DNA from: Chlamydiota bacterium
Lineage (GTDB): Bacteria; Chlamydiota; Chlamydiia; Chlamydiales; Rhabdochlamydiaceae
DNA length: 57,992 nt
Direction: 5' to 3'
NCBI GenBank assembly: GCA_013287365.1
Contig: JABDDY010000001.1
Location: 1 to 57,992, forward strand
The position numbers were made by a program, and so were the translations under genes. Numbering within the stretch: the stretch's first letter is position 1; each line of letters starts with the position of its first letter. The notes beneath the pieces are model-generated. The model saw nothing but the letters and a program-made list of their open reading frames with translations, did no database searches and was not told where the DNA came from. Of this stretch, positions 12,826-20,607 are shown one piece after another.

Positions 12826-15800
12826 GTGCGTTATTTGATTGCTTTGGCTTGCTGCCTTTTAGCCACTCCTGTTTTTTCAGATGAAGAGCCGCCAAGAGAA
12901 GAGCTCTTTCTCTCCACGCCAGAACAGGTCTCTGCCCTAACGAGCGAGCCCAGTTACTTGATCGGTGGATTGATCAGTCCACTCAGCGGACAGCCCGTTT
13001 TAAAGCAAACTGACCTCATCATCAAGGGCGCCCAAAGTATCGTTCTTCACCGCACCTATGTTCCTCCCTATGTACCTTCCTCTTTTCCCCAGCACAAACA
13101 TGATCCAGAAGAGCACAACAAAAGGCATTTATACCATCACCTTCGTAACAACTACAAGGGCTGGCAGTTCTATCCTCATTTGAAACTCGAGCTCAACCCT
13201 CGCTCGATGCAAATGCGCCTTTCAGAACCCACTGGCATGACCCTTGACTATCGATTATCAGGCCCTGGATTTTCAGAGACCTCTTTAGTTTCTCCTCCGC
13301 ATGCGATTAGCAATGCAGCAGGAGAGGTCCCAAGTGGTAAATATGACCCCCGAAACACTCGAATATCTTACGAAGAAAATGGCAATAGAGTCAGCGTTCA
13401 TGCAACAGATGGAACGATTCGGATCTATCTGAAAAAAGGATGGATCGCAAATTCCTGCTTATATCTCCTTGCAAAGGAAATTCTCCCAAATGGAAAAGTT
13501 CTTAAGTACCACTATAACGAGGGAGGACAACTTCACTCCATTGAAAGTCTGGATCCGAAGGAACGATATGTCTACTCCTCGCTTCGCATTGCAGGCACAC
13601 CCTGGGACGGTCGTTGCCAGTTCACCTCTTCTTCTGGGCTCACTGTCGATTACAACTATCAAAAAAGATCGATCGAATGGAAAATTAAAGAGAAAATCGA
13701 TGGAATGGAACAAAAAGAGAGGCACAAGGTCGTTTGTCCCCCTATTCTAACATCTGTCAGTAGTCCCTCTTACAGGCACGAATCCTTAGACTATTGCGAA
13801 CGCTTTCTCTTAAGTTCTTACTCTGGGAAAGAGGAGATTTTCAACATCTTACATTCGGGGTTCGGCAAGGAAATCAATCACTATAGAGTCCATAGACTTC
13901 TCTTGCCTGTAGGCCAAAATGATGCTTTTCTCCCCATTCATAAATTCTTCTATGTACCACCCGTTGCAGGGCAAAAAGAGGGAAGAACGGCTGTTACAAA
14001 CAGCGATGGGACCTTGATTGCTTATCACTTCTCTAAAGATCTCCTCATAACTTCTATTCAATATTTTGGGCAAAACGAGGTCTTGAAAAAAGAAAAGCTC
14101 TTCTCTTGGGACGATAACCATTGGCTAAAAGCCCTTGAAATGAGAGATGGCCATAAGAATACCCTCTACAGAAAATCGTTCGAGTACGACCGCTTTGGCA
14201 ACCCAATCCTGGAACTGTTTACCGGTGATCTGACAGGAAAGGGAACCCAAGAGACTTTTACGACCAAAAGAACTTTTTCTGAAGACGGGAGGAATCTCCT
14301 CCTAAGGGAAGAGACTGAAGAGGGGAAAGTCCTTTGCTTGTCCTATCTTCCCCATACCGACCTTGTCACGTCCAAGCTGACAAAAGAGGGCGATAAGATC
14401 ATTTTGCGAGAATTTTCCCTCTATGACGATTGCCATAACCTTATCCAGACAATCTCTGATGATGGTTCAAGTGAAGACAAAAATGATCTATCGAACGTTA
14501 CGCAAAGGACCCTGACGACTTACACATTACGTCAATTAGCCCCCTTCCTCCACATGCCCGAGTGGATCGAAGAAACATACTGGGAAGCTGGAACCGAAAA
14601 ACCCTTAAAAAAGAGCCATTTAATTTACGACCAGCATGGCAATGTTGCTCAGGAAGAGGTGTATGATGCTCAAGGAAACCATGCCTATACCATTTGCAAA
14701 ACCTACAACGAACGTGGAGATGTTCTTTCTGAGACCAATCGTTTAGGACAAGAGGCGACTTATCGATATGACCCGAGGGGGCGCCCTGAGGCTACTTTTA
14801 ACTTCTCTCAGAGGATACATACAACCTTCCGTCATGATGCAAAAGGCAGACTTAAAGCTGAGATCGAGAAGGGAGACGATGGAATTGTCCATGAAACCTC
14901 TTCAGAATATGACTTCCATGATCGCAGGATCCAGAGGAAGGACTTTTTTCAAAACACCACTCACTATGTCTATGATCCACTTGTCAGCGAGGTTATAAAA
15001 ACAGATTTTCCTTCGATTGCTTCTATTGATGGACAAGCGACTTCTGTATCAACCCTTTCAACCTATGACCCTTTTGGGCGAGAGCTGACGAAAACAGACG
15101 CTAACGGAAATACAACAACCTACCGGTATAACGCTTACGGCTCCCCTGTCGAAATGCACTACCCCGACGGAAGCAAAGAGTATTTTCGATATACGAACAA
15201 AGGCACTCTTGCAAGCCATACAGATCCAGACGGGGTCACAATTCATTTTACCTACGATGTTCTGGGAAGAGCTCTCTCAAAAACCTATATCTCAGAAAAT
15301 GGAGAGCAGCTGGCCACTGAGACCTTTACCTACAATGGCTTTAACCCTCTTACAGAAACCGATAAAGAGGGGAATGTCAAAAAGCTCTCTTACGACGGAG
15401 CGGGAAGGAAAATTCGAGAGGAGTTTTGTGGTCAGGCTACTGATTTCAGTTATGACTCCCTCGGACGGCTCACTACCACCTGCAAACACAATGGAAGCAA
15501 CACCCTGTTCATCCATTACAAAAGAGATTTAGAGGACAGGATTTTAGAAGAGCGAAAGAGAGATTCCTCTAATCGTCTGCTCTATCAAATCAATTATTCC
15601 TACGACAAGGACGGGAATCGAGAAACGGTGACCCGCTACATCAATGGGAAAGAAGCCACTAGCGCCTTTGCTTATGATTCTTGTCATAGGCAGATCGAAT
15701 ACCGAGATGCTAAAGGCTCTGTCACAAGAACAGAGTACAATGAAGGGTTCCTCAACCACTTAGGGCAAAAGGTCCTACAAAGAGCGGTGACAGACCCACG

Positions 15801-20527: not shown

Positions 20528-20607
20528 ACTGTGACACGCAACCCTAAGCGCAAAACCTCTGCTCGCCTCTCAAAACCTCGCAAAAGATCGAGAGCAAGGG
20601 TCAAATC

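Follow-up and report, generated by a model that had tools for sequence, protein, structure and literature searches.

A chlamydial RHS polymorphic-toxin locus with a putative cognate antidote and an array of probable orphan immunity genes

Against whom would an obligate intracellular bacterium direct a large secreted toxin, and why should the gene for it be followed by a row of small genes? Bacteria with this way of life are usually held to be sheltered from bacterial competition. The question is raised by an RHS/YD-repeat gene and the small genes behind it in a 57,992-nt stretch of an environmental Chlamydiota genome (Rhabdochlamydiaceae; assembly GCA_013287365.1, contig JABDDY010000001.1), which we refer to as the window. 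Our analysis of the sequence and of related loci makes it on balance probable that the genes make up a functional RHS polymorphic-toxin locus, carried on an acquired island of 7.8 kb, in which the gene directly after the toxin (S79) would encode the cognate antidote and four further genes (P1–P4) orphan antidotes, with antagonism between chlamydiae as the likeliest use. By kind, this is an ordinary RHS polymorphic-toxin locus. What is new is the toxin and immunity families that it carries. The first-pass annotation of this DNA had overrated the novelty of the locus itself: in 2012 Zhang, Aravind et al. (PMC3482391) had already catalogued chlamydial RHS toxins with a signal peptide (the type II secretion system, or T2SS, class), whose tails include Ntox37 and Ntox24, and the rhs genes of Waddlia have been annotated, with numbers reaching at least rhs11 (PMC7143554, PMC4989314).

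The RHS gene (12826..17967, + strand) is an intact, uninterrupted open reading frame (ORF) that runs for 1713 codons from a GTG start, with GGAGG 10 nt 5' of it. Its product matches Pfam RHS_repeat (PF05593, 2.7e-51), TIGR01643 (2.5e-35) and the RHS core model TIGR03696, and the nearest solved structures are the Rhs cages of type VI secretion systems (T6SS; E 1e-32), bacterial teneurin-like proteins and TcC. The complete RHS/YD frame reported earlier is confirmed by these Pfam, TIGR and PDB matches. An exact look-up of the protein in the protein collection returned no record; the copy at one related locus, L009, is 76% identical over a full-length alignment. We count 23 YD dipeptides, so that the repeats described before are present, the word "dozens" being slightly generous. 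Promoter and terminator scans gave sites no more frequent than in shuffled sequence.

A Sec signal peptide is predicted at residues 1–18 (12826..12879, +), with cleavage between MRYLIALACCLLATPVFS and DEE. This call, made from the hydropathy, a cleavage site of the V-x-S form and the conservation seen in homologues, agrees with the cleavable-looking signal proposed initially. The N-terminus, (M)RYLIALACCLLATPVFS before DEE, resembles those of homologues such as MRYLLSLICCLLTVGAFS before EEE, and the signal peptide is kept in L001, L002, L006 and L008, the N-termini that were inspected. A lipoprotein N-terminus using Cys 9 and 10 was considered and rejected on sequence inspection: the cysteines are too early and there is no lipobox. 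A 19-residue hydropathy scan of the whole protein finds two hydrophobic stretches only, at residues 1–19 and 1540–1575.

The RHS-associated core domain (residues 1464–1539; 17215..17442, +) scores 76.9 bits against TIGR03696 (cut-off 32.5), aligns with the C-terminal plug of the TcC and Rhs structures and ends in NNPFLYKDQDGQ. By analogy with these proteins, the end of the core is presumed to be an aspartyl self-cleavage site. The core terminus had been called canonical, which holds for the domain and not for its end motif: NPFLYKDQDGQ is a variant of PxxxxDPxGL (P to Q, L to Q), and relatives have DPDGQ, DQDGQ or DQNGE at this position. The tail that follows spans exactly residues 1540–1713, in agreement with the 174 aa first assigned to it, and consists of a hydrophobic segment, an acidic linker and, at its C-terminal end, a domain we name ToxX. 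The hydrophobic segment is a Gly/Ala-rich pre-toxin linker of about two helices (residues 1541–1585; 17446..17580, +) with a hydropathy of 1.5–1.73 on the 19-residue Kyte–Doolittle scale (KD-19). ToxX itself covers residues 1617–1713 (17674..17964, +; ~95 aa).

Related loci show which small gene goes with which toxin. A scan with one genome per species yielded 30 loci that encode this same RHS family, 39–76% identical and all in metagenome-assembled genomes (MAGs) of Chlamydiota. Besides Parachlamydiales and Waddliaceae, these include a few bins that bear the label Verrucomicrobiae; more than one copy is present in several genomes, and several full-length copies per genome occur across Parachlamydiales and Waddliaceae. 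The ~30 loci divide into at least four defined tail types, with a few tails left unclassified. ToxX tails (window, L009, L010, L018, L031) and type A tails (L001/L033, L002, L011, L012, L013, L032; ...GHKGxxHxHRxNP...SHLYP) have no Pfam match, type B tails (L006, L025, L027, L034, L036) match Pfam Ntox37 with 30.1 bits (cut-off 27.8), and type C tails (L017, L021, L028, L030) match Ntox24 weakly.

A homologue of S79 directly follows ToxX in nine of nine loci (window, L006, L008, L009, L010, L018, L031, L119, L120). In L006 and L008 the ToxX in question is a free-standing orphan ORF. L119 (Golvesin_C plus RHS) and L120 (DPYGL-type RHS) have a different architecture that ends in ToxX, and the genes that follow are recognised as S79 homologues with hidden Markov model (HMM) E-values of 1e-29 and 1e-25. 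A gene of the P family directly follows the type A tail in six of six chlamydial RHS loci. After type B (Ntox37), a gene of a 224-aa family comes directly next in four of five loci and lies ~1.2 kb downstream in the fifth, L036. The conserved gene order marks S79 as the predicted cognate immunity protein, a cytoplasmic antidote, of ToxX. Across these loci the downstream gene tracks the toxin type and not the linker or the core, which would place the toxicity in the C-terminal domain and make the hydrophobic linker a shared delivery part.

S79 (17982..18221, +) encodes 79 aa with a pI of 4.35 and has AAGGAGG 5 nt upstream. By sequence inspection, neither S79 nor the P proteins have a signal peptide, and most of the immunity proteins are acidic (pI 4.6–5.2 for P1, P3 and P4); they should for these reasons act in the cytoplasm. 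S79 has 48 close homologues, none of which is named. More than 632 proteins of the collection belong to the P family, the few named ones being mostly from chlamydial MAGs. S79 and P1–P5 match no Pfam or NCBIfam model, described Imm families included, and none of 46 P-family members compared with Pfam has a match; the family is unnamed.

Among 1.84 billion representative proteins, a profile search recovers 348 relatives of ToxX, 295 of them below 1e-10. Of 183 domain matches in a local re-search of the available sequences, 163 end no more than 15 aa from the C-terminus. Its carriers are RHS proteins, TcB/TcC-like fusions (SpvB, FG-GAP, TcdB_mid, RHS) and PT-HINT proteins. ToxX can be taken from these sequences as a widespread C-terminal module on the usual polymorphic-toxin scaffolds. 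A word-indexed search with the tail had returned short orphan ORFs only, despite the full-length ToxX RHS proteins in L009, L010, L018 and L031, which is a limit of the index and not biology. A hydrophobic segment also accompanies the domain elsewhere: at a KD-19 threshold of at least 1.4, the 110 aa upstream of ToxX contain one in 78 of 141 family members, as against 3 of 72 control segments taken from these proteins.

The AlphaFold2 (AF2) model of ToxX, built on an 81-sequence alignment, is confident, with a predicted local distance difference test (pLDDT) score of 92.3; the fold is all-beta and comprises six strands and a single short helix. It replaces an earlier run on 26 close sequences that was unusable (pLDDT 58). 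A Foldseek search of PDB and BFVD with this model gave no neighbour (best E 0.8 and 0.27, template modelling score below 0.35). The window tail has no Pfam match at E<=10, Ntox37 and Ntox24 included; none of the 81 relatives matches a Pfam toxin family, and profile searches against PDB sequences returned nothing for ToxX, type A or the P family. We also considered homology between ToxX and type A, as HxH...NP motifs occur in both, and rejected it (hhalign probability 0.95%). The conserved polar residues of ToxX, R1674, D1676, H1680, H1685, D1687, R1689, H1694, H1696, N1702 and D1704, form an R/D/H cluster that suggests catalysis or metal binding. Acidic antidotes are typical for toxins directed at nucleic acid, and our best guess is that ToxX acts on nucleic acid. 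At residues 1978–2120 of the 2120-aa RHS protein P0283, the C-terminal half of Pfam Tox-WTIP comes after ToxX, making this either two toxins in one protein or a single composite tail.

Comparison of the RHS proteins region by region indicates how such tails are acquired. Identity to the window is 53–77% throughout for the core, and ~20% or 60–76% for the tail depending on its type. The linker of L011 is 73% identical to that of the window and its toxin only 25%, while L018 and L031 have toxins that are 60–63% identical and linkers that are only 18–20% identical. This mosaic shows two exchange junctions, one between core and linker and one between linker and toxin. Swapping of C-termini and immunity genes on a conserved core, for which the first-pass annotation had advised a comparison across related chlamydiae, is seen directly in these values. 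A hydrophobic stretch comes directly after the core in all complete copies, in two main sequence subtypes and a few divergent versions, and the subtypes are conserved across chlamydial RHS proteins irrespective of the toxin after them. The flanks of the window RHS gene have no synteny with those of the other RHS loci; the family inserts at different sites. A degraded relative is present at L008 (GCA_020053915.1, 9064-10883), where an internal deletion has affected the RHS gene. A 289-aa N-terminal RHS piece, whose first 252 aa are 64% identical, precedes the free-standing ToxX ORF (~81–82%); a homologue of S79 (88%) comes next, and then another fragment of ToxX.

What, then, are the genes beyond S79? 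Nine elements, all on the + strand, lie 3' of the RHS stop codon and reach position 20534; at least seven small genes or remnants had been noted there before. Four of them are intact members of the P family: P1 (18244..18648, with alternative starts at 18208 and 18226), P2 (18670..19077), P3 (19154..19540) and P4 (19541..19960). They are conserved at the family-invariant positions and share 37–46% mutual identity. Each matches the partner of a different foreign type A toxin. P1 is 71% identical to the gene after the type A RHS gene of L001/L033, and P2, P3 and P4 are 82, 80 and 79% identical to the genes directly after those of L013, L012 and L002. The type A toxin domains of L001, L002, L012 and L013 are 47–55% identical to one another where compared. 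By conserved gene order, P1–P4 are the predicted antidotes to four variants of the type A tail of other chlamydiae.

There is no full type A toxin on the 58-kb contig. The only type A sequence is a C-terminal toxin stub of 25 codons, RFDEYLDANDNPVLNISDPSHLYPS and a stop, at 19059..19136 (+), which tblastn aligns with the end of the L012 tail (71% over 24 aa, E 2e-7). The 24 matching residues are encoded by 19059-19130, and the stub ends 17 nt before P3, a position that suits a toxin–immunity module that has been displaced. As the stub resembles the L012 tail and is the sole type A sequence here, P3 appears to have arrived within a type A toxin–immunity module whose toxin has since been deleted, and P4 probably came within the same module. 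P1–P4 match foreign type A partners and a type A stub precedes P3, which argues that the array consists of orphan immunities left by displaced cassettes, orphan on this contig. The layout proposed at the outset, toxin, cognate immunity and extra or orphan immunity genes, is borne out by this stub together with the pairing of S79 with ToxX and of P genes with type A.

The distal part of the array contains the remaining elements. An S79-like stub, EAWFYTLEFGDGNSIELPECYLEPY and a stop (19975..20052, +), is 57% identical to S79 over 21 aa (tblastn, E 6e-7). P5 (20069..20468, +) is a P1-like pseudogene in which the alignment reveals an internal deletion and a frameshift; its 3' end has 80% DNA identity to the end of P1 (repeat D2). 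A truncated 5' fragment of 14 codons, MNLSKYSDYFHEAL and a stop (20490..20534, +), is P2-like, as judged from repeats D2 and D3 and from reading the sequence. The junction of the P1 end and P2 start at 18552-18704 is repeated at 20372-20524 with 80% DNA identity. The debris has the same order, S79–P1–P2, as the intact proximal genes, as would be the case if incoming cassettes recombined at the RHS gene's 3' end and so drove older ones downstream.

Arrays of small genes were also seen elsewhere. In a Waddliaceae MAG (L025, 12703-18181), six paralogues of the ~210–224-aa immunity family follow an Ntox37-tailed RHS gene, forming a second homogeneous immunity array in chlamydiae. In L004 (GCA_016185065.1, 9251-12567), a mixed array of small genes lies downstream of a tetratricopeptide repeat protein with no RHS gene nearby. 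Its members are a P gene, two S79 copies fused in tandem, a lone S79 and several further ORFs without names. It looks like a heterogeneous poly-immunity locus, the term of Zhang et al. for arrays of this sort.

The island differs from its surroundings in composition, with a GC content of 0.45 for the RHS gene and 0.33 for the array as against 0.51 on either side. The upstream ABC-F gene (10576-12156) and the downstream RNase Z gene (20608-21513, -) are both present as annotated. In about forty related chlamydial metagenome contigs the order is lon, cytidylyltransferase, rhomboid, RNase Z, a gap, orf12483, ABC-F and xerC. The gap between RNase Z and orf12483 is only 8–38 bp in L046, L049, L061 and L091, and holds unrelated cargo in others: leucine-rich repeat proteins (L077, L114), tandem ~250-aa secreted paralogues (L090, L117) and an insertion sequence transposase (L073). 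None of the 80 contigs from the scan (L039–L118) has an RHS, S79 or P gene at this site. Because the site is empty or differently filled in related contigs, and with the lower GC content fitting, the 7.8-kb island is a lineage-specific insertion at a variable site, a cargo hotspot. Two small overlapping ORFs of 90 and 80 aa (12218-12725, +) lie between ABC-F and the RHS gene. Neither has a Pfam match, and the second is conserved at the same position in many related contigs with 34–70% identity. The chlamydial lineage indicated earlier by the neighbouring genes is supported by a Chlamydia-type SecD/SecF fusion further along the contig and by the origin of all 30 close RHS relatives in Chlamydiota MAGs.

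These features can be combined into a sequence of events. The Sec system would export the RHS protein by means of its signal peptide, and the YD repeats, judging from Tc toxin and T6SS Rhs structures, would fold into a closed shell. As in the RHS family generally, the core domain may cut the chain between DQDG and QF, with the 174-aa tail kept inside the shell. The hydrophobic Gly/Ala-rich hairpin, shielded in the shell, could later insert into the target membrane and pass ToxX across, and ToxX, presumably an enzyme-like domain, would act in a cytoplasm. Incoming toxin–immunity cassettes would have displaced older ones, with P1–P4 left intact while the toxin genes decayed. Antagonism between chlamydiae sharing a host cell is the most likely use; the targets would be chlamydial because the antidotes are intact and matched to foreign toxins.

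To our knowledge, the whole phylum Chlamydiae is without a T6SS. No T6SS, two-partner secretion (TPS) or Tc-A domain was found in the large window ORFs scanned, a scan that was not exhaustive, and the initial remark that no T6SS or contact-dependent inhibition (CDI) export genes are visible holds within that scope. The hydrophobic pre-toxin module may explain delivery without a T6SS or other secretion machine. A bolder version of the antagonism reading has environmental chlamydiae attacking one another in a shared host cell by means of Sec-exported RHS shells, without any injection machine. The conserved hairpin, lying packed after the cut, would bring the small toxin through the rival's membranes, ToxX would be a new catalytic fold, and orphan immunity genes would build up in genomes as a record of toxins met. 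We put this forward tentatively, as a doubtful extension.

Several points weigh against a working toxin aimed at other chlamydiae. The RHS protein has no known machine for outer-membrane export or delivery, the core motif is DQDGQ and not DPxGL, and part of the array (P5, the stubs) is decaying. ToxX has no catalytic fold recognisable by Foldseek, which makes "enzyme" and "nuclease" guesses. The genome is represented here by a single contig, and a type A RHS gene elsewhere in it would make P1–P4 less orphan. Moreover, in cells infected with Waddlia, mass spectrometry placed the signal-peptide RHS protein rhs11 (wcw_0453) in the cytosol fraction (PMC7143554), which fits a host-directed role at least equally well. 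The shell would then be freed into the inclusion or host cytosol by a T2SS or outer-membrane vesicles, ToxX would attack the eukaryote, S79 would protect the producer before export and the P array would be a leftover. Such a role, the chief competing reading, is possible rather than probable. It would suit the regulation of Waddlia rhs9, which is an Euo target and so follows the developmental cycle (PMC4989314), the use of the same kind of shell against eukaryotic cells by the related Tc toxins, and the window ORFs scanned, in which no bacterial delivery machine is evident. However, host-directed toxins typically come without immunity genes (Zhang et al. 2012, PMC3482391), toxin–immunity cassettes are exchanged among chlamydiae, and four intact immunity genes that match the toxins of other chlamydiae are hard to explain without incoming toxins.

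It could also be argued that the island is largely inert, selfish or decaying, having spread horizontally and being kept by addiction or not yet lost, with an RHS protein that is not deployed and an array of debris. The low GC content and cargo-hotspot site, the pseudogene and three stubs in the array, and the degraded relative L008 with its internal RHS deletion would agree with this. The RHS gene is nevertheless an undisrupted 5.1-kb ORF accompanied by five intact small genes with good ribosome-binding context, and full-length copies of the family are kept, several per genome, in Parachlamydiales and Waddliaceae; we consider an inert island unlikely. Exchanging the roles of the small genes, so that the P genes provide immunity to the window toxin and S79 is an accessory or chaperone, is very improbable. 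The P genes are a multi-copy element, and P1 may overlap the end of S79, suggesting co-translation, but the next gene is an S79 homologue in eight other ToxX loci, from most of which a P gene is absent, and the P genes directly follow type A tails, for which hhalign gave no homology to ToxX. P1 as the cognate immunity gene was rejected on the same gene-order statistics.

With antagonism between chlamydiae as the preferred reading, the locus can be compared with known systems. The class of Zhang et al. shares the signal peptide, YD shell, RHS core, swappable toxin, adjacent cytoplasmic immunity, orphan cassettes and poly-immunity, and sister loci carry its Ntox37 (L006, L025, L027, L034, L036) and a weak Ntox24-like tail. 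The window ToxX, the type A toxin, S79 and the P families differ from it in matching no Pfam model. Zhang et al. describe orphan cassettes and poly-immunity loci in general and conclude that intracellular bacteria are mostly without immunity genes, Simkania and Odyssella, which have URI toxins with immunity genes, being rare exceptions (PMC3482391). The window locus departs from that conclusion with five intact immunity genes. Interbacterial antagonism by polymorphic-toxin-like modules has also been argued for obligate intracellular Rickettsia (PMC9111745). The modules of Rickettsia, Simkania and Odyssella resemble the window in placing toxin–immunity cassettes, read as a sign of co-resident conflict, in strict intracellular bacteria; their carriers and toxins are different, and for none of them is there a report of an orphan array of four members whose matching foreign toxins are identified. 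A literature search with incomplete coverage found no paper on ToxX, S79, the type A tail, the P family or the hydrophobic linker, and no dedicated study of chlamydial RHS toxin–immunity systems after 2012.

By sequence, the nearest solved shells are those of T6SS Rhs effectors (RhsA, Tse5, Tse15, Salmonella and Photorhabdus Rhs; PDB 8h8a, 8qjc, 7q97, 8cp6). They have a C-terminal self-cleaving core with an enclosed toxin, as is presumed for the window protein; a downstream immunity gene and orphan toxin–immunity modules are common features. Unlike them, the window protein has no PAAR, prePAAR or VgrG match and no Eag partner, and carries a predicted Sec signal peptide instead. A hydrophobic segment inside a shell has a precedent in Tse5-CT, a hydrophobic, membrane-active cargo. 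The Tc toxin TcB–TcC cocoons (PDB 4o9x, 6h6e, 4igl) align with the RHS shell and the core protease domain, and some distant ToxX members are on SpvB/TcdB-type fused scaffolds, whereas the window protein has no SpvB or TcdB_mid Pfam match and no TcA gene is found in the ORFs scanned. In contrast to CDI systems (CdiA/CdiB), no TPS domain, filamentous haemagglutinin repeats, VENN motif or CdiB gene was detected in the window scans.

WapA of Bacillus subtilis and Streptococcus suis likewise combines a Sec signal peptide, RHS repeats, a polymorphic C-terminal toxin and a downstream immunity gene, and acts in contact-dependent competition without a dedicated injection machine (PMC12704120). WapA is anchored to a Gram-positive wall, whereas the window protein has an outer membrane to cross and no detected wall-binding domain. 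The hydrophobic pre-toxin hairpin is a further difference, as we know of no such feature described for WapA.

Within this company, the window locus stands out by its occurrence in an obligate intracellular phylum, its well-resolved array of orphan antidotes, its three undescribed families and its possible delivery module. The families defined here are ToxX (348 cluster representatives), the S79 antidote and the type A toxin/P antidote pair. With five intact immunity genes, four of them matching identified toxins of other chlamydiae, inter-chlamydial conflict becomes a concrete, testable hypothesis.

Two regions of the window outside the locus were also noted. Between 46000 and 57992 the GC content falls to 0.36–0.44; several ORFs of 400–490 aa in this region have no Pfam match, and it also holds a ClpB-like AAA protein (46754-48559) and an aspartyl-protease-like ORF (54062-55006). 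About 3 kb upstream of the RHS island, an overlapping gene pair (8960-9590, -) encodes a Gp49/HigB-like toxin (126 aa) and an HI1420-type helix-turn-helix antidote (128 aa). This type II toxin–antitoxin module adjoins 9630-10544 (-), beside a XerC-like recombinase.

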